IMG/VR virus record: IMGVR_UViG_3300028840_003366 | Direction: 5' to 3' (one strand) | Length of the DNA stretch: 64,000 nucleotides | Origin: an uncultured virus (IMG/VR IMGVR_UViG_3300028840_003366) | Taxonomy: Duplodnaviria > Heunggongvirae > Uroviricota > Caudoviricetes | Shown: one piece after another, positions 1,783 to 9,458 of the stretch | Position numbering within the stretch: the stretch's first letter is position 1 | How the letters are laid out: every line of letters starts with the position of its first letter | Notes under the pieces: model-generated | Seen by the model: the letters and a program-made list of their open reading frames with translations, nothing else | Told to the model about the DNA's origin: nothing | The model's database searches: none | Made by a program: the position numbers and the translations under genes

Positions 1783-2977
1783 TGAATATCTTTCTTTGTC
1801 TTTTCATAATCATGTATTCTGTCAAACTATCTATACCATTATAAATTAACAGCTCTTTCGGATCAATCTGATCAATCCGGTTGAATCCATTTGAATTCTT
1901 GCCATAGAGGTATGGAGCAATATGAGAATCGTAATCCGATAATCCAAGATGAATATAGGCTTGGAATTTGATTGAAGAAATTCCCGAACGATTGTCAAGA
2001 CAATGAGCAGCAAGCATCGTATCCCAATACCAGCTTTTTACACCATGACCAAGTATTGCTCTGGTCCACCTCTCCTCAAACTTCATATTGCTTGCCACCT
2101 TCTTCAGGTGTTTGCTTTTCAATATATCAGATAGAACACTCTTTGTTCGGTGATCTTCATCTATTCCACAAGCAAACGTATCCTTTCCATTTAGACAAAA
2201 AGAGACAGAGATGATCTTATGTCCTTTCTTGTCAGGTTTCAAGCCATTAGTCTCATAATCAAAAGCCAGTACTCCTTCCTTGGTGCTGAGGTTTGCCATC
2301 CTTGTTCTTGCGTGATCTGGATCAAGGATCACTTCCACCTTACTCTTCAGATTTTCAAGTGAATATTTCTTTACTTTCTTATTCTCAAGACTGATTGCTT
2401 TCTTCAGATGCTGTCTGAATATCTTCACCAATAGCTCATCCTCACCCATTCTCAAGATATAGGAGGGATGATAGGTAGGACAGAGCCAAGCCTTGTACTG
2501 TGGGCTGGGAATAGTCCATCCAATCCATTTTGTCAATGGGCCAATATCTTTTTTCCATTCCTGAAACAACAGACTCTCCAGAGCTGATTTTCCCAGTGCT
2601 ATAATCACAGCCGGTCTCAACCGTTTGATGGTTTTCAATAGGTTGGGACGACAACATTGAATCATGTGTTTTTCAATCTTATTGTTGGGAGGTCTGCAGA
2701 TGACAGTATTCGTTTTCCAACAATCATCCAAATCAATATCAATATCATCCAACACATCTCTCAGTAGCTGACCAGCATCCCCTATGAGCTGAACTCCCTG
2801 TCTATCTTCCTGTTCTCCTGGAGCTTCAGCGACAAAGAGAGTTTTACGTCTTCCCAGACCTGTTGTCTGCATCTTGGGACTAATGCATTTTTTATACAGT
2901 CCACATTTGCCACACCGGGAAATCTTTGGTGTTATCTTTTCTGATTTCAATTCCGAACCGCTGAAGAATCCACGCAT
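1772..2977 (-). CDS. UDG family 4-like domain fused to a DEDD 3'-5' exonuclease (N-terminal half of an SPO1-type polymerase)
   Basis: CxxCxL, AEAPGEQED, CRPP, TYHPSY (UDG4-like); FDYETNG, SNMKFE, WDTMLA, YNGID (Exo I-III); ATG at 2977 overlaps the upstream TAA. Confidence 0.9.
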   Translation of the reverse strand: MRGFFSGSELKSEKITPKISRCGKCGLYKKCISPKMQTTGLGRRKTLFVAEAPGEQEDRQGVQLIGDAGQLLRDVLDDIDIDLDDCWKTNTVICRPPNNKIEKHMIQCCRPNLLKTIKRLRPAVIIALGKSALESLLFQEWKKDIGPLTKWIGWTIPSPQYKAWLCPTYHPSYILRMGEDELLVKIFRQHLKKAISLENKKVKKYSLENLKSKVEVILDPDHARTRMANLSTKEGVLAFDYETNGLKPDKKGHKIISVSFCLNGKDTFACGIDEDHRTKSVLSDILKSKHLKKVASNMKFEERWTRAILGHGVKSWYWDTMLAAHCLDNRSGISSIKFQAYIHLGLSDYDSHIAPYLYGKNSNGFNRIDQIDPKELLIYNGIDSLTEYMIMKRQRKIFNGK

Positions 2978-3987
2978 TATTTTTTCTCTACACAAATGAC
3001 AAAATGAAAATTGTCCTTTTCAATCTTAATGCTTGATTCTCCAAAGATAACCTTTTTCGTTTTGGATAAAATCTCTTTGAGAAAATTCAGACTGACTGTG
3101 AATGATATGCTCTTGCCGGAATACTTGATGCTTCTCTTTTCTTCATACCAAACTCCATCCTTTTCTGTTCTGATCTTCAGAGCATTTTCTTTCAGTGTGA
3201 TATGAGCTTCCCCTAACTGATCCTGAACTACCTGGGCTCGTTCTATCGTATCAGAAATTGTCTTGGGGAAAGAACCTGAAACACCATCAATATTGAGTAT
3301 TGAATGCAGCATTTCATCATCAAAATATTCTATCTCCGAACAACGGAGTGAATATCTTATCCCATTTTCTGATAATAAATGAAGCCAGTTATCTTTTATT
3401 CCAGCTTTCTTTATTGTCTTGTTTCCAAGCAGAAGAATGGAATCAGATGGGATCATTATTTCCCGTTTGATAAATTTTGTAGTCACGTCAACACGAAAGA
3501 CTCTGTATCGGTCCGTAGCTTCAATAAAATTCTTTCGTACATGGACATGGGTGGTTTTGGGATTGGTGTGATCTCTCCCGCATATCTGAGCGCATTGGAA
3601 AAGATAGTGGAAGAAATTTTCCGATACTTTGAACAGCTTTCCAGGTTCAGGGACTTCAGTATACGGAAGCAGAATTTCCTTGAAGATAGTGATACCGGCT
3701 TTCTTTCTTTTCCCTGTCAGGACCAGCTCATTTCCATCCAGGTCAATACCTATCTGATCATCCGGGAATTTTTCAAGTAGCTTCAGGAAATCTGCTCCTA
3801 CAATTGAGAATGGTTGTTTGATACCTATATCATAGTCAGCTGAAGCAAATATCTCCCCATTGAAAGTGAAGATTTTCTTGTCTTTGAAAACAAAGGCGTT
3901 GGATTGTTCCAGTACTTCATTTGGCGTCAGGATACACTTCAGGCCATTTAGGACTGTGATGACTTCCGCTCTTTTCTTGACAGCCAT
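2977..3987 (-). CDS. DNA sliding clamp, beta-subunit-like
   Basis: 336 aa; EATDRYR resembles the ATDGHRL motif of beta clamps; three-domain length; adjacent to polymerase. Confidence 0.7.
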   Translation of the reverse strand: MAVKKRAEVITVLNGLKCILTPNEVLEQSNAFVFKDKKIFTFNGEIFASADYDIGIKQPFSIVGADFLKLLEKFPDDQIGIDLDGNELVLTGKRKKAGITIFKEILLPYTEVPEPGKLFKVSENFFHYLFQCAQICGRDHTNPKTTHVHVRKNFIEATDRYRVFRVDVTTKFIKREIMIPSDSILLLGNKTIKKAGIKDNWLHLLSENGIRYSLRCSEIEYFDDEMLHSILNIDGVSGSFPKTISDTIERAQVVQDQLGEAHITLKENALKIRTEKDGVWYEEKRSIKYSGKSISFTVSLNFLKEILSKTKKVIFGESSIKIEKDNFHFVICVEKK

Positions 3988-3999
3988 TTCTTTCTCCTT

Positions 4000-4113
4000 T
4001 TAATCATTCTGTCGAGTTCTTTTATGCTTATACTTCCATACGTGAACAAAGCGGCGATATCTCTTCCTGTATTTCAGCTGAATACTATTGCTTCCGACCA
4101 AGTAGATTATCAC
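4000..4113 (-). CDS. Mini-ORF C (MIIYLVG...), possibly a frameshifted third paralogue
   Basis: GTG overlaps the TGA of ORF B; 37 aa; an ALFTY segment matching VLFSF of ORFs A/B lies in the +1 frame. Confidence 0.45.
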   Translation of the reverse strand: MIIYLVGSNSIQLKYRKRYRRFVHVWKYKHKRTRQND

Positions 4114-4286
4114 CTTACTCTCTTCCTTCTATTCTGTTTCTGTCTCTTCATTTCCATCTCTTCAAAGAACTTCTTTCTCATATCTATGTAGTCAAAACTG
4201 AACAAGACATGGAGAAGCCTCGACTCACGAAGAGTGAACTCCTTTGAAGTTCTTTTGCTAATGAGACCAGCCAGATAGATGATCAT
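4110..4286 (-). CDS. Mini-ORF B (MIIYLAG...HVLFSFDY)
   Basis: 58 aa from the internal ATG; clear paralogue of ORF A. Confidence 0.65.
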   Translation of the reverse strand: MIIYLAGLISKRTSKEFTLRESRLLHVLFSFDYIDMRKKFFEEMEMKRQKQNRRKRVR

Positions 4287-4470
4287 CCTGTCTTCTTTCT
4301 GTTTTTTGTTTTTTCTTTTCAACCATTGCCTCGAATCTCTCTTTTGTTTCTGAAAATCCTTTCCTCATTTCTAAGTATTCAAAGCTAAACAAAACATGTT
4401 TAAGTCTTGGTTCACATATAAACACCACTGATTTTTTTCTTCTGATGTTACCTGCAAGATAAATGATCAT
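4258..4470 (-). CDS. Mini-ORF A (MIIYLAG...HVLFSFEY)
   Basis: 70 aa; ATG at 4470 overlaps the dpdA-like stop (ATGA coupling). Confidence 0.65.
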   Translation of the reverse strand: MIIYLAGNIRRKKSVVFICEPRLKHVLFSFEYLEMRKGFSETKERFEAMVEKKKQKTERRQDDHLSGWSH

Positions 4471-5426
4471 AGTAACGTCTTTCTCTTCTTGAGTTTTAGA
4501 GCCCATGGCCACCTCGGCAGATGGGCCTCAAACTCAGTGAAGGCATACAGGCAAGCATCAACTCTTCTCATTCTAGTGTTTGATACACCTGGAGATTCGA
4601 CTACTTCAATCTCTTCTCCTTTAACAAGCCAGTTCTCACCGTCCTTCTTCAAGACATAGTTTGGATTGACCTTTTTGTATGAACTTTCCCCAAAGGGAAT
4701 GCCGGCGCTCTCCAAGTATTCAAGAATATACCTTCTTAAGTAGGAAGGCTTGTTCCTGAAGTGGGTATTGGAACCAGGGTCTTTCTTAAACCCAACGTTT
4801 GAGACGGTAATGCTCTCAATAGAACCCCAATCGTATCCCTCTGTCTTTCCTTTCTTCGGGTAGAGAATGGAACCGAACCCTGGACTTATCACCCAAGAGG
4901 TGGAGTCCACAGAATACCAAGGATATCTTTTCATGAGACTGAAGCTGGTCATTCCAAATCCATGTACTTTTATCTTTGGTATTCCTTTGTTATCAGTAAG
5001 AATCTCTGACCATACCATATCTAAAAGCTGTCGTAAAATTACAGAAGAAACTCCAACCATCGCTCCAATACAAATGTAGTCATATCCTTCATCAATATAT
5101 CTCTGAAGCCATTTCACATCAGAATCAATATGCCAGACCGGACATGGTTTGAATCCCCGTTTCTCAAACCATTTCTGATTCTTGTAGGTAAGCTCAGCAT
5201 TCCCAATCACGTCAAGATTTGCATAAACATCAAAATGCTTGGCATGCTTTTTCAGAAAGCGAACGTATTCCCTTCGATATGTTTTGTATTCGTCTGAGCA
5301 AACGTAAGAATAATCATCCCGTGAACGACTCTTGAGAGTAGACATAGCCGATCCATCCATGCTTCCCTTTGATAATCTCTTATAGATACCAAAGGCTCCA
5401 CTATCAAGAAACAGCTTGATGCTCAT
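4467..5426 (-). CDS. dpdA: DpdA-like TGT-fold DNA 7-deazaguanine transglycosylase
   Basis: FLDSGAF, NLDVIG, PVWH, VHGFG, PWYSVDSTSW motifs; adjacent to folE/queE/queD/queC. Confidence 0.82.
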   Translation of the reverse strand: MSIKLFLDSGAFGIYKRLSKGSMDGSAMSTLKSRSRDDYSYVCSDEYKTYRREYVRFLKKHAKHFDVYANLDVIGNAELTYKNQKWFEKRGFKPCPVWHIDSDVKWLQRYIDEGYDYICIGAMVGVSSVILRQLLDMVWSEILTDNKGIPKIKVHGFGMTSFSLMKRYPWYSVDSTSWVISPGFGSILYPKKGKTEGYDWGSIESITVSNVGFKKDPGSNTHFRNKPSYLRRYILEYLESAGIPFGESSYKKVNPNYVLKKDGENWLVKGEEIEVVESPGVSNTRMRRVDACLYAFTEFEAHLPRWPWALKLKKRKTLL

Positions 5427-5433
5427 GATATTC

Positions 5434-7218
5434 CTACTTAATCATTTGGAACAATTCAGACCGTGAAGCATCTTTCTCTCTGAATACCCCAGTCAGGCTG
5501 GATGTGGTCATGATAGAATTTTGCTTCTGAACTCCCCTGGAAGTCATACAATTATGAACAATAATACCTTCTGCCGCAAAATTATTGAATTTATTTACTT
5601 CAATATCATATACTTCTTCTATACCAAGTTCTTCAATTTTTATTATTTTATGGTTACCTTCATTTTTAAGATAGCATTTTTGAGAACAAAACTTTTGTGT
5701 TTTTTCTAAATAGGCATACTTAACAAAAAATGTTTTTCCACATCCTAAACATGTTAATGGATTTCTAATTTTTTTGTTATGAGCAGGATGGCTTTTATTC
5801 TCATTTTTTTTCCCTTCAAAGTGTTTTTTTGAATGTTCTCCTCTCTTTAAGATAATTAAATTATTTAAGCTATTATCTAAGGTATTTCCATTTTTATGAT
5901 GAACAGCCTCAGAAGTTTTTAATTTCCTTCCAATTTTATTTTCTGCTAAAAATCTATGTTCATGTACATAGTCCCCATTATTTAAGGATAAAGTTTTGTA
6001 TTCTTCTCCATAGCACGAAAAAGGCATCAGACTATCACCTACAGAAAGCCCATCTTTAATTGTCAAATAATCTCCATTTTTATATTTTCTGTGTTTATTA
6101 TTATAACGATTATGAAGTTTGTGACGCAACATAAAAGGATGATCTTCCGTTACTTTAATAGACCCATTCATTTTTTTCTTTTTATATTGATTTTTTGAAA
6201 ACCATTCAAATGTTACTTTATATACTTTTTTTCTTCCTGATCTCCATATTTTAGATGCATTTCCAATTACAATTTTTTCTGTATTTTTATCATAACTATA
6301 AATAGGAAGATTTTGTTTTCCAACAAGAGTTTCTATCGGAACACCATCAGGAAAAATATTTCTATCAAGATAAGCCAATTGTATTTTAGTTCCTTTAGCA
6401 AGACAAAAGTGTTGGGCTTCCAAGATACAGGCAGAACCTAATGGTTTCAATTCCTCATCAAGCAATGATGTAATCTGTTGACAAAGCCTCTCCTGAATCT
6501 GAAGCCTTCGCGCAAAAACTTCAAGCACTCTAGCTAGTTTACTGATTCCTACAACTCTTCCATTTGGGATGTATGCTATATGAGCCTTGCCGAAGAATGG
6601 AAGCATGTGGTGTTCACACGTGCTAAAAAATTCCATGTTTTTCAGCAAAACAATCTCATCACTTGAATCGTCCTCAAACATCTTGAGAACAGATTTGGGA
6701 TCAACGTGATAACCACCATACAAGGTTTCCCACGATTTGATAACGCGATTAGGAGTCTCTATCAATCCCTCTCTGTGTATGTCTTCTCCAATATATTCAA
6801 TCATACGCACAATATTTTCCTGTGGGCCGGTCTCTTCACACATAGCTTCCCATGGAAAAACCAACCAGCCTGGAACTTCTCCCTTTGTCTTGTCATACAA
6901 AGCAATGAAAGGAATGTCTGGGAAATCCCTTTTGTACCTGTCTCTCGTAGCTCCGGAATCAATGATATCATCCACAAAGATATCGGCCTCCTCCGGTTTG
7001 TCAGCAAGAATATTGTTTGCATGAAGATGTTTCTGCAGCAGTAAGGCTGGAAATATTCCACCACGAGGAACACCATAGATACTTATCACTTTGTAGCATT
7101 CTGGTGGTAGATTCAATTCCTCTCTAATCTGAGTGGCCAGATTGACGGCTCTGAGAGAAACATCATCCCAACTCAGGAAATATTTATCAGCTTGTGTATC
7201 TGTACTGACAGCATCCAC
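5434..7218 (-). CDS. folE: Type I phosphoribosyltransferase fused to GTP cyclohydrolase I, intein-containing
   Basis: N-terminal GVPRGG, VDDIIDSGAT (PRPP loop), WLVFPWE; FolE motifs REGLIETPNR, STCEHHMLPF, GISKLAR, QIQERL, HF|CMTSRG. Confidence 0.92.
   Translation of the reverse strand: MDAVSTDTQADKYFLSWDDVSLRAVNLATQIREELNLPPECYKVISIYGVPRGGIFPALLLQKHLHANNILADKPEEADIFVDDIIDSGATRDRYKRDFPDIPFIALYDKTKGEVPGWLVFPWEAMCEETGPQENIVRMIEYIGEDIHREGLIETPNRVIKSWETLYGGYHVDPKSVLKMFEDDSSDEIVLLKNMEFFSTCEHHMLPFFGKAHIAYIPNGRVVGISKLARVLEVFARRLQIQERLCQQITSLLDEELKPLGSACILEAQHFCLAKGTKIQLAYLDRNIFPDGVPIETLVGKQNLPIYSYDKNTEKIVIGNASKIWRSGRKKVYKVTFEWFSKNQYKKKKMNGSIKVTEDHPFMLRHKLHNRYNNKHRKYKNGDYLTIKDGLSVGDSLMPFSCYGEEYKTLSLNNGDYVHEHRFLAENKIGRKLKTSEAVHHKNGNTLDNSLNNLIILKRGEHSKKHFEGKKNENKSHPAHNKKIRNPLTCLGCGKTFFVKYAYLEKTQKFCSQKCYLKNEGNHKIIKIEELGIEEVYDIEVNKFNNFAAEGIIVHNCMTSRGVQKQNSIMTTSSLTGVFREKDASRSELFQMIK
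5551..6405 (-). mobile_element. Intein (285 aa) with in-frame HNH homing endonuclease, inserted in FolE
   Basis: Starts CLAKGT, block B TEDHPF, HEHR...VHHKNGNTLDNSLNNL (HNH), Cys4 zinc finger, ends VYDIEV...IVHN followed by Cys+1; visibly AT-rich versus flanks. Confidence 0.93.
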
Positions 7219-7793
7219 AATGGATTCTCCTTTACAAATTCAACAGCAGACTCGAAGTCTTCACTGCAAGGCTGGATGTAGAAATGATTAAATCTGGTAT
7301 GTAGACGTAAGGGCAATTTCCTTATTAGTTCAACGTCAATATCTGGCTCAAGAACAATCTTCAATTCATCACCTGACCACTCTTTATCATCAAAGAATGC
7401 TGTACAATCTTCCACCATTATTTTTGGTGAGACTGTCACCCAGATGTTGCTAAGACGTGGGATACTTTTCAGATTGTATCCGTTGGTCTCTATGGCGATT
7501 TCATTAGGTGAAAGCATCAATGTGAGTTCTGTCAATAAAGGATTAAGATCGTATAAAGTTGGTTCTCCTCCTGTGATAACAATCAGAACAAATGGAGGCC
7601 ATCTTTGAGGCAAAAGTTCTCCTACCATCTGAACAATTTGCTCTTCTGACATCTTTTCATGTTTTGTATGGTTGGTATCACACCAAGGACATTTCAAATT
7701 GCAGCCAGACAATCGAATAAAAACTGCAGGGCGTCCGGCATAAAATCCTTCACCTTGCAAGCTGTAAAAGATTTGGTTTATGGGATATAGCAT
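7173..7793 (-). CDS. queE: 7-carboxy-7-deazaguanine synthase (radical SAM)
   Basis: IFYSLQGEG, CNLKCPWCDT, ITGGEP, IETNG, TVSPK, LSVQIHK. Confidence 0.95.
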   Translation of the reverse strand: MLYPINQIFYSLQGEGFYAGRPAVFIRLSGCNLKCPWCDTNHTKHEKMSEEQIVQMVGELLPQRWPPFVLIVITGGEPTLYDLNPLLTELTLMLSPNEIAIETNGYNLKSIPRLSNIWVTVSPKIMVEDCTAFFDDKEWSGDELKIVLEPDIDVELIRKLPLRLHTRFNHFYIQPCSEDFESAVEFVKENPLWMLSVQIHKLINIS

Positions 7794-8143
7794 GCCAGAT
7801 TTCCTTCGCTCTCTTGGACTGAGACTTTGGAAATACAGGGAATTTCATCCCCTTCCCATTCTTCATTAATTCTCTTCTGAATTTCAAAGGCAATCCAGAA
7901 GGCCATGTTCTCAGCCGTAGGATTTAAGGAAATATGATCATTGATATGAGAATGGTCCAACTGATTGACAATTTCCTTGATGTGTTTGAAATCAATCAGC
8001 ATTCCATTCTCATTCAGTCTTTCTCCTTGTACCTCTACAATCACATTCCAATTATGGCCATGAAGTTCTGAACAGGGAGAATCATAATCCAGATTCAGTC
8101 TATGGCTTCCGGCAATCTCAATCCTTTTTGAGATCGTATACAT
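7778..8143 (-). CDS. queD: 6-carboxytetrahydropterin synthase
   Basis: SHRL, CSELHGHNW, GMLIDF, LDH, PTAEN, VQES. Confidence 0.95.
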   Translation of the reverse strand: MYTISKRIEIAGSHRLNLDYDSPCSELHGHNWNVIVEVQGERLNENGMLIDFKHIKEIVNQLDHSHINDHISLNPTAENMAFWIAFEIQKRINEEWEGDEIPCISKVSVQESEGNLACYIP

Positions 8144-8812
8144 CTACTCTTCCTCATATTGAACAGGATCAATCTGACCAATATTTCTGAAGGCCTCCAA
8201 ACGTTCCTGACAAGCTCCACATTTTCCACACGCCAACTCCTGATCCTTGTAACAGGTACGAGTGAGTTGATATGGGAAAGGTTCTTTTGAAGATTCATAA
8301 CCATATTGAAGTATGGTTGTTTTGTTTCCGTGGAGAAAGGGAGCCTGAAGGGACACTTTCCCATCAGTCCCTTTCTCCACAGCCCAATCCATCGCATGAA
8401 AAAACTTGGGTCTACAATCTGGATAGATAAAATGATCCCCAGCATGTATTCCTAGAACCACTGTATCAAAATCACGGCTTTCTGCAATCCCTGCAAGAAT
8501 TGAAATGAAAATCATATTCCTGCCTGGAACAACAGTCTGTCTCATGGATTCAGATTCATAATGACCTTCAGGAATATTTCCACCATTCCTAAGCAGATTG
8601 GATCTGAGATGATTACCAATTGCTGACAGGTCTATCCGTATGAATTCCACTTCAAAGTGATAAGCCAGTTGCTCAGCACATTTCTGTTCATACGGATTGT
8701 GCTTGCTTCCATAGATGAAACCAACAGCAATAACTTCTTCACTATTATTGATAGCCCAGTCAAGAGCTGTTGCCGAATCCATCCCACCTGATAATGATAC
8801 TACCGACTTCAT
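8144..8812 (-). CDS. queC: 7-cyano-7-deazaguanine synthase
   Basis: SGGMDS, VVPGRN, YPDCRP, TCY...CGKCGAC. Confidence 0.96.
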   Translation of the reverse strand: MKSVVSLSGGMDSATALDWAINNSEEVIAVGFIYGSKHNPYEQKCAEQLAYHFEVEFIRIDLSAIGNHLRSNLLRNGGNIPEGHYESESMRQTVVPGRNMIFISILAGIAESRDFDTVVLGIHAGDHFIYPDCRPKFFHAMDWAVEKGTDGKVSLQAPFLHGNKTTILQYGYESSKEPFPYQLTRTCYKDQELACGKCGACQERLEAFRNIGQIDPVQYEEE

Positions 8813-8837: not shown

Positions 8838-9458
8838 TCACTTGGTCACGTAGCCTTTGTCTGTTTTTTCGATCTTCATGCCACGTTCTTTGTTCAAACG
8901 ACCAGGAACCTGTACTCTAATCGTGGCAAGCATTGAGTCAGCATTCCGGTCAGGAAACTTCTTGACCAATTTCTCATGAATCTGTTCAAGAGACATTGGG
9001 CGCTTTGCGCTTGCAAGAATTTCAGCAATCGTAGCAATAACACCAGCGCCCCGGTGCTTTGTCTTTTTAGAAGACTTCTTTTGTACAGGAGCCTTCTTTT
9101 CCTTCTTGCCTTTGCTCTTGGATGTCTTCTTGTTTTTCTTCGGAGCAGTTTTCTCTTCCTCTTCTTCTTCCTCTTCCTCTTCTTCTTCCTCTTCCTCTTC
9201 TTCTTCCTCTTCCTCTTCAATGTCGGCAAGATCATCTTCAGTAGGCTCATCAGCACTTTCATCCTCAAAGTCAAGTTCATACCCTATTGCTGTCAGAACC
9301 TTGACTTCAGCCTTCGTGATCTCGATATCCTCAGGAAGACCATCCTTCTCAATCTTCCTCTCCAACTTCTGCTTCGCCCGTTCCAGACTGATCTTTGACG
9401 TGTACTTCACGCCCAGTTTCTCCAGCAGACTCAAAACCACCTTTCTCTCATCAGCCAT
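8838..9458 (-). CDS. Protein with poly-Glu tract, Lys-rich linker and C-terminal winged HTH (HARE-HTH-like)
   Basis: About 22 consecutive Glu, then a K-rich segment, then IAEILASAKRPMSLEQIHEKL. Confidence 0.6.
   Translation of the reverse strand: MADERKVVLSLLEKLGVKYTSKISLERAKQKLERKIEKDGLPEDIEITKAEVKVLTAIGYELDFEDESADEPTEDDLADIEEEEEEEEEEEEEEEEEEEEEEKTAPKKNKKTSKSKGKKEKKAPVQKKSSKKTKHRGAGVIATIAEILASAKRPMSLEQIHEKLVKKFPDRNADSMLATIRVQVPGRLNKERGMKIEKTDKGYVTK

Follow-up and report, generated by a model that had tools for sequence, protein, structure and literature searches.

The window analysed here, a stretch of 64,000 nucleotides of DNA from an uncultured virus of the Caudoviricetes (IMG/VR record IMGVR_UViG_3300028840_003366), probably encodes a naturally split form of the DNA guanine transglycosylase DpdA, in which the (β/α)8 barrel would be completed in trans by a module encoded in a separate small open reading frame (ORF). 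A 319-residue catalytic core would provide six of the eight β/α units, the base pocket, all conserved catalytic residues and the C-terminal domain, and two mini-ORFs, A and B, translationally coupled to the core, would each supply the missing first quarter of the barrel (β1-α1-β2, about 45 residues). One module would enter between β8 and β3 of the core and close the barrel, and the completed enzyme would then be active, exchanging guanine in the phage DNA for preQ0 from the adjacent FolE, QueD, QueE and QueC proteins. Analysis in silico shows that the segment is missing, that the mini-ORFs are homologous to it and under purifying selection, that they are strictly linked to DpdA in the genomes, and that docking is predicted with a confident geometry; from these we infer that the module binds in the cell and is needed for activity. 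Both the enzyme and its pathway have been described before; what is new is the proposed architecture of subunits and the family of small proteins that goes with it.

The initial annotation had remarked that the DpdA-like ORF begins almost at its catalytic LDSGAF motif, and this is indeed the case, the N terminus being MSIKLFLDSGAF and the motif being reached after seven residues. Homology to phrog_887 is strong (expectation value (E) 4.2e-47), with residues 4-245 falling on profile positions 57-256 and the first 56 positions unmatched; long relatives are matched by the same profile from position 10. A homologue search yielded 2256 proteins at E ≤0.001, 120 of which were listed and analysed. 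An extension of 44-62 residues with the pattern MKIYLAG...RL(W/L/H)SYYH precedes LFLDSGAF in 30 of these 120, and most of the others begin within about 11 residues of LFLDSGAF, as the window protein does. The DpdA proteins of the cultured phages examined (Pantoea phage Vid5, a Stenotrophomonas phage and Vibrio phage AL-2) all possess the extension, in an N terminus of 56-64 residues (for example MKLYLAG...YLESYHY...VFLDSGAF). The pattern given in the initial annotation for many phage proteins resembling tRNA-guanine transglycosylase (TGT), xxYLAG...LxS(F/Y)xY before LDSG, is thus present in the 30 listed homologues and in the three cultured phages. The window protein keeps four residues, D8, D72, H155 and D174, that do not vary among the 21 sequences of alignment A2, and the two active-site aspartates are present as D8 (in LDSGAF, the DSG motif on β3) and D174 (in SVDS, on β8). 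The aspartate equivalent to D8 is Asp63 in CAjan DpdA (available text of PMC7544227).

A sequence-profile search of the PDB with the long forms gave at best an E of 0.14, to the bacterial DpdA structure 7ui4, so the relationship had to rest on comparison of folds. The AlphaFold2 (AF2) model of the long relative P0036 (predicted local distance difference test score (pLDDT) 81) has eight barrel strands, of which the first two (residues 4-6 and 28-30) lie within the N-terminal extension, and VIA-align 2 places its residue 1 onto residue 4 of 7ui4 and residue 40 of the Z. mobilis TGT (7ui4: Z 15.4, root-mean-square deviation (rmsd) 4.2 Å, 267 aligned residues). The AF2 model of the window protein (pLDDT 87) has six barrel strands, and its residues 1-305 align with 7ui4 residues 88-409 (Z 11.7, rmsd 3.3 Å, 218 aligned residues) and with the TGT from residue 95. 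Since the window model aligns only from β3 onward and the long relative from its start, the window enzyme is without the β1-α1-β2-α2 portion of the TGT barrel, and relatives with all eight strands are about 50 residues longer. The initial annotation had raised the question of whether the protein models as a complete barrel; modelled alone it yields β3-β8, and all eight strands are seen only together with a mini-ORF in the predicted complex. The FolE gene ends 8 nucleotides upstream of the DpdA-like ORF, which leaves no space for an upstream exon. By family the enzyme is a member of the phage DpdA1-like PHROG, and by fold it falls in the TGT class.

Directly downstream of the core lie three overlapping mini-ORFs (Table 1), whose beginnings MIIYLAG, MIIYLAG and MIIYLVG are as first described. 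The start of B is 29 nucleotides inside A, and the start of C overlaps the stop of B as GTGA. A and B are 58% identical and share MIIYLAG and HVLFSF(E/D)Y; the two strands are kept and the β1-α1 and β2-α2 regions differ. We define a free N-module as an ORF of 45-90 residues on the DpdA strand and adjoining DpdA, with the start M-x-[IVL]-[YWF]-[LFI]-A-G and the second-strand motif [LV]-L-[FSW]-S-[FY]; A and B have all of these features, and C has them only when read across a 2-nucleotide deletion. The ALFTY of C is, as had been noticed, found only in a shifted frame. Relative to the intact orthologue in L002, a 77%-identical related locus, the window reads TATCGCC--GCTTTG in place of TATTGCCATGCTTTA, and the break lies outside any repeat. 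The L002 protein is MIIYLVGDVSDQLKYKKRYCHALFTYG..., and since both halves of the window version are still conserved, C is a copy that broke recently. L002 carries B and the intact C and has no A.

Profile-profile comparison supports the view that the mini-ORFs correspond to the missing segment. With hhalign, a profile of window-clade mini-ORFs (A6: A, B, two modules of L002 and one each of L004 and L006) matched the profile of the cis N terminus of long DpdA proteins (A7, nine cis extensions) at a probability of 92.8% and E 3.8e-7 over 37 columns, placing β1 on β1 (MIIYLAG on MKIYLAG) and β2 on β2 (HVLFSF on RLWSYY); the mini-ORFs therefore align with DpdA N termini, as the split-barrel proposal expects. 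The iterated module profile described below puts A at the top of all 2344 segments obtained by six-frame translation of the window (E 0.002 and 0.0008), gives B a domain independent E-value (iE) of 0.02-0.04, and finds no further module copies elsewhere in the 64 kb. By these comparisons the mini-ORFs are homologous to the β1-α1-β2 segment, their resemblance to the DpdA N terminus exceeding chance. When the mini-ORFs were aligned globally with complete DpdA proteins in MAFFT they came out scattered, and that alignment was discarded. Scans of A, B and C against Pfam and PHROG returned no family at E up to 1 (B was scanned without its first methionine), and eight free modules from related loci gave weak matches only, the best being DUF1281 at E 0.0068, below the cut-off, together with weak matches to the N terminus of phrog_887.

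The structure of the complex, a prediction that had been suggested for DpdA with each peptide, was predicted for A, using the core (alignment A2) and residues 1-55 of A (alignment A4), in three runs and with three controls. The interface score ipSAE was 0.94, 0.93 and 0.94 for the three runs against 0.00 for the best of the three controls; when the predictor was calibrated, 116 of 157 solved complexes reached the mark, as did 2 of 215 mismatched pairs. The pLDDT of the partner lay at 84-87, and from run to run the contacts agreed to at least 96%. The tightest contacts join core residues 4-7 (β3) to A residues 25-28 (HVLF), and core residues 171-174 (β8) to A residues 2-4 (IIY), a pattern of β8-β1 and β2-β3 pairing that is expected were A closing the barrel. 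Thus A is predicted, with confident docking geometry, to sit between β8 and β3 of the core. The C-terminal helix of the core (residues 286-306) also contacts the start of A in the model, in keeping with the order of the genes and with the fusions dealt with below, and the basic loop residues 10 and 12-14 of A lie outside the confident contacts.

The spread of the modules was followed in 80 related viral loci, each translated into six-frame ORFs, with a hidden Markov model (HMM) built from 30 cis extensions and then three more profile rounds. The cis-extension HMM unexpectedly matched many free ORFs of 50-90 residues adjoining DpdA in the related loci, with E down to 1e-15. At iE ≤0.1 the iterated profile made 227 module matches on the DpdA strand and none on the opposite strand, a plain motif scan found 168 and none, respectively, and 103 distinct full-length free modules were collected. 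A short DpdA was accompanied by at least one free module in 42 of the 80 loci and had no profile match in nine; a long DpdA was accompanied by free modules in 15 loci and had none in one; the extension was split between two frames in 11, and the DpdA motif was missed by the search pattern in two. Among the nine profile-negative loci, divergent modules were recognized in L004, L014, L030 and L067, L005 and L015 are assumed to be like L004 from identical match statistics, and the remaining three proved to be a frame-split gene (L058), a long form with a module (L062) and a fusion (L020). The single module of L004 (47% identity) has a GTG start that abuts the DpdA stop. The apparent split arrangement recurs in many uncultured phages.

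Linkage to DpdA is equally strict when the search is reversed. With one module subfamily (A5) alone, 54 of 54 viral loci had a same-strand DpdA core within 4 kb, with 195 module matches on the DpdA strand and none on the other; 33 of these loci are on contigs absent by name from the first set. Among 1.84 billion representatives, the module profile recovered 490 cluster representatives at E ≤0.001; 150 were listed, and in 141 of these the protein is 45-89 residues long and its match begins at residue 1. The DpdA stop overlaps the module start in the ATGA manner (-1) in 29 of 78 loci, and the start is within 12 nucleotides of the stop in 39 of 78. Clustering of 162 units showed that subfamilies occur about once per locus, with four duplicates among 158 locus-subfamily combinations, and that they follow one another in conserved orders such as B-[H fused]-A-D, E-F-I and A-D-C, which together indicate old paralogues kept side by side rather than recent debris. 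In comparison with L002, where synonymous sites are saturated, the non-synonymous (pN) and synonymous (pS) divergences are 0.13 and 0.79 for DpdA and 0.18 and 0.91 for B, which is 69% identical to its L002 orthologue; B is under purifying selection comparable to that on DpdA. The median pN/pS of 81 inter-locus pairs of free modules (55-92% identity) is 0.33, with 80 of the 81 below 0.5, in a set picked by amino-acid identity and so biased to low pN/pS. A metagenome scan aimed at close relatives of the window DpdA found 14 loci, of which only an identical contig exceeded 48% identity, and no further orthologues of A, B or C. Positions 3900-5500 are identical in Logan contigs from a pair of DNA runs; these runs may themselves be the source of the window and so give no independent support. 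No RNA run was listed for the stretch.

The module also occurs covalently joined to the core in several ways. It is fused to the N terminus in long-form DpdA, and in L020 (3001-4245, P0121) it is fused in frame to the core C terminus through a 17-residue linker (...GFGLDGNPRNEISKFSSFKENWRLYVAGENPHGV...NRLVSFFY), at a site where the relatives L030 and L052 have GFGL-stop/ATGA/MKLYIAG; judged from its sequence, the L020 protein would be in effect a natural circular permutation-like form. Two to four tandem N-modules, each with its own methionine, precede a single, shorter core in P0123, P0124, P0148, P0173 and P0180. P0148 is matched by 226 phage records, none covering at least 80% of it, and the 12 matches listed start at query residues 150-165, past the multi-module part. 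Mini-proteins of two modules were also seen (P0155, P0159 and P0204). The 120 homologues include 33 long or partial forms, and every one of these retains a methionine 5-13 residues before LFLDSGAF (for example at L048:2977, L073:2986 and L039:2989; background methionine 2.65%); several of these internal sites have a Shine-Dalgarno-like sequence upstream. The conserved methionine suggests that an internal start may yield a module-less core from the long genes as well, and this would account for the persistence of free modules next to such genes.

In the related loci, modules and cis extensions are often frame-split exactly at (AG)n tracts, which give a conserved RERE motif, or at poly-G tracts (Table 1). 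Tracts of (AG)5 or longer number 33 on the coding strand against 0-5 for non-AG/GA dinucleotides (the 32 of GA are the same tracts read one base on), and tracts of at least 8 nucleotides number 53 on the DpdA strand and one on the other. L037 and L047 are three AG units apart from L040 and share its off frame. The sequences of A, B and C in the window contain no (AG)n or poly-G tract. The frame splits could be phase variation, slippage (transcriptional or otherwise) or programmed frameshifting. The DpdA gene of L045 has a TGA in frame within its cis extension (235-345; ..KLWK*RLWSYYH..), which could be readthrough, recoding or mutation.

The proposal that the barrel is split, with small proteins supplying its first strands, passed all the computational tests made, of fold, homology and docking; against it stands the break in C, which leaves only A and B complete in this phage. 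Other observations also count against a DpdA that depends on a module in trans. In 15 of 16 long-form loci free modules stand beside a DpdA with its own cis segment, so the wider picture is more complex than simple fission, and the tandem multi-module proteins are unexplained by a simple one-to-one completion. The core by itself folds confidently in AF2, which would allow an autonomous core. The HMM of cis extensions alone is not significant on A and B (E 0.43 and 3.3 within the window), so that homology rests on iteration through the free modules and on the profile-profile match. Finally, a complex predictor can accept two halves of a known fold because it remembers solved TGT barrels, so the docking result shows likeness to a complete TGT barrel and not binding. 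In a different role, the mini-proteins might bind the β8/β3 edge as regulators that hold the core inactive, time its activity or compete with a cis module, and not as obligatory catalytic subunits. The docking model is compatible with binding for any purpose, and the coexistence of free and cis-fused modules and the several paralogous subfamilies per phage, each present about once per locus, would suit regulators. Nevertheless we consider this role unlikely: the window has no cis module and its core alone has only six strands, the methionine retained in every long or partial form fits a module-less core in need of a partner, and the N- and C-terminal fusions favour a constitutive structural role.

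Purifying selection on B like that on DpdA, the low pN/pS of nearly all module pairs, the conserved order of subfamilies across diverged phages, the ATGA coupling, the 490 cluster representatives, mostly of 45-89 residues, and the unbroken linkage to DpdA are difficult to reconcile with a self-sufficient core whose mini-ORFs would be remnants of its gene's 5' end after repeated duplication, or would encode small proteins of unrelated function. Such an explanation, to which the frameshift in C, the lack of an A orthologue in L002, the absence of any PHROG or Pfam family for A and B and the confident model of the lone core all lend something, seems to us quite improbable. It is also conceivable that the arrays are DNA-level cassettes, from which recombination or repeat slippage swaps or switches the N-module joined to the core, in the manner of phase or antigenic variation, the free ORFs being by-products. 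The frequent frame splits at (AG)n or poly-G tracts, the excess of (AG)5 or longer on the coding strand, the frame-split N-extension in 11 of 78 DpdA genes and the difference in tract length between L037/L047 and L040 are what would be expected of cassettes. Yet A, B and C are without such a tract and C is broken outside any repeat, the free modules have their own starts and stops and are constrained at the amino-acid level, and L037, L040 and L047 share an off frame despite a difference of three AG units, unlike random switching; we regard cassettes as very unlikely. A split DpdA completed in trans remains the reading that we prefer for the window.

The closest known systems are the phage DpdA1-type enzymes (phrog_887; CAjan, Vid5, Queuovirinae), which share with the window enzyme the PHROG and the LDSGAF and SVDS motifs, and with the window the FolE/QueD/QueE/QueC operon and the clamp/PolA synteny; the order FolE-DpdA-(small ORFs)-clamp-PolA is common to the window and the three cultured phages. 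The DpdA proteins of Vid5, the Stenotrophomonas phage and Vibrio AL-2 carry β1-α1-β2 in cis, whereas the window encodes the segment as separate genes. The small ORFs beside the Vid5 and AL-2 DpdA genes showed no module motifs on reading, which did not include application of the module profile. The best structural match of both the long relative and the window core is the bacterial DpdA of the S. Montevideo Dpd restriction-modification system (7ui4), a barrel of the TGT type whose wide face holds the active site; likeness in sequence is marginal, with Pfam PF23859 (DpdA) reaching 14.5 bits on the window protein, below the gathering cut-off of 27, at E 0.017 and over residues 106-178 only. The bacterial enzyme is described in the available text of PMC10164549 as a single chain with a complete barrel that requires the DpdB ATPase and as having the zinc motif CXCX2CX22H, which is absent from the 319-residue window sequence.

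The TGTs themselves (bacterial TGT, ArcTGT and QTRT1/QTRT2) share the fold and the double-aspartate chemistry with the window enzyme, at a Z of about 15 for the model of the long relative. They act on tRNA, and the two-subunit TGT forms pair two complete barrels; the split ArcTGT of some archaea separates whole domains and not strands within the barrel. The half-barrels of HisA/HisF and engineered split (β/α)8 barrels are evolutionary reconstructions or laboratory constructs, mostly of 4+4 form. Fragment-complemented barrels resemble the window system in having separately encoded βα pieces, and the window would differ in being a natural 2+6 split with many paralogous two-unit pieces. In type I restriction-modification a catalytic core works with exchangeable or phase-variable HsdS specificity subunits encoded alongside. 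The likeness, of a core with alternative small subunits, is by analogy only, since the folds are unrelated and the type I specificity subunit is a separate DNA-recognising domain, in contrast to the putative exchangeable part here, an integral quarter of the catalytic barrel. No natural quarter-barrel subunit was found among the papers that a full-text search listed. The literature searched, which includes PMC10516641, PMC10164549 and PMC7544227 without their supplements, where alignments might show it, describes neither a DpdA in split form nor genes paralogous to the DpdA N terminus.

All genes surrounding the DpdA locus are on the minus strand, in the downstream order QueC, QueD, QueE-like, FolE, DpdA-like, the three small ORFs and the clamp (Table 1). 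The preQ0 pathway genes (FolE, QueD, QueE and QueC) adjoin the DpdA-like ORF, which is the arrangement that marks a phage 7-deazaguanine DNA modification cluster. The FolE ORF (594 residues) is composite, with a phosphoribosyltransferase-like N-terminal part (phrog_8995, residues 77-125) and a GTP cyclohydrolase I domain broken by an intein with an HNH endonuclease (Intein_splicing 293-556, HNH_3 421-463). The family-A DNA polymerase is spread over two ORFs between positions 197 and 2995 on the minus strand, an ORF with uracil-DNA glycosylase (UDG)-superfamily and 3'-5' exonuclease domains being followed by a polymerase-domain ORF. Beyond QueC, a 206-residue protein (8838-9458, minus strand) has an unbroken run of about 24 glutamates and then a lysine-rich stretch, and long ORFs in two other frames overlap the repeat.

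Table 1. Positions of the split DpdA candidate and its neighbours in the window, and of frame-split modules or extensions in related loci
Feature	Position	Strand	Remarks
DpdA-like DNA guanine transglycosylase core, 319 aa	4467-5426	minus	Barrel strands β3-β8 and C-terminal domain; without β1-α1-β2-α2
ATGA overlap of DpdA stop with mini-ORF A start	4467-4470	minus	Putative translational coupling
Mini-ORF A, 70 aa	ATG 4470 to stop 4258	minus	Putative free β1-α1-β2(-α2) module with basic tail; MIIYLAGNIRRKK...HVLFSFEY
Mini-ORF B, 58 aa	ATG 4286 to stop 4110	minus	Paralogue of A, same strands, other loops; MIIYLAGLISKRT...HVLFSFDY
Mini-ORF C, 37 aa in frame	GTG 4113 to stop 4000	minus	MIIYLVGSNS...; in-frame first half MIIYLVGSNSIQLKYRKRY
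Module C, second half, shifted frame	3948-4052	minus	ALFTYGSISIKELDRMIKRRKK...; reaches into the clamp gene start
Sliding clamp	2977-3987	minus	phrog_947, E 5e-21; directly downstream of the small ORFs
UDG-superfamily and 3'-5' exonuclease protein	1772-2995	minus	
Family-A polymerase domain protein	197-1588	minus	
FolE	5434-7218	minus	Pfam GTP_cyclohydroI, 5.5e-64
QueE-like radical SAM protein	7173-7793	minus	Pfam Radical_SAM, 8e-14
QueD	7778-8143	minus	Pfam PTPS, 1e-29
QueC	8144-8812	minus	Pfam QueC, 4e-56
Frame-split modules or extensions, related loci	L029:2853-2960, L039:2853-2960, L035:317-420, L033:2632-2730, L047:2780-2880, L027:2730-2930, L031:2829-2930, L037:2583-2690		

The initial annotation had further suggested that interchangeable modules tune the DNA target of the modification. 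The equivalent of the module in the Z. mobilis TGT, residues 40-94, includes the loop-helix motif of β1α1 as well as Val45 and Leu68 of the pocket floor (available text of PMC5395182), and in the S. Montevideo DpdA the insertion at β1/α1 contributes to a positively charged surface that binds DNA, with the β2/α2 insertion beside the active site (PMC10164549, in part). As these DNA-binding and active-site features fall in the part of the barrel that the modules encode, a change of module could alter the preference for DNA context. The loops in which A and B differ face the nucleic acid at the active site of TGT and DpdA, and by analogy with those structures it is plausible that holoenzymes with A or with B would differ in this way, a proposal that we hold only tentatively. 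Equally speculative is a broader scheme in which phages build a 6/8-barrel core together with a library of exchangeable quarter-barrel subunits with different loops, so that several contexts would be modified and more restriction enzymes resisted, and in which (AG)n tracts would switch subunits or core fusions in some lineages.

If confirmed, the window would provide a natural enzyme in which the TIM barrel itself is cut (2+6) and put together from the products of different genes. The coexistence of free, N-fused, C-fused and tandem forms bears on ideas about how (β/α)8 barrels arose from smaller βα units. The modules, of about 50 residues, are unannotated and yet numerous, which means that annotation pipelines miss a component of these modification systems. 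They offer a testable explanation for how DpdA gains or broadens its sequence context, CAjan DpdA already modifying G in two contexts, GA and GGC (PMC7544227, in part), and they suggest a modular route by which the camouflage of phage DNA may be adapted to the restriction systems of the host.

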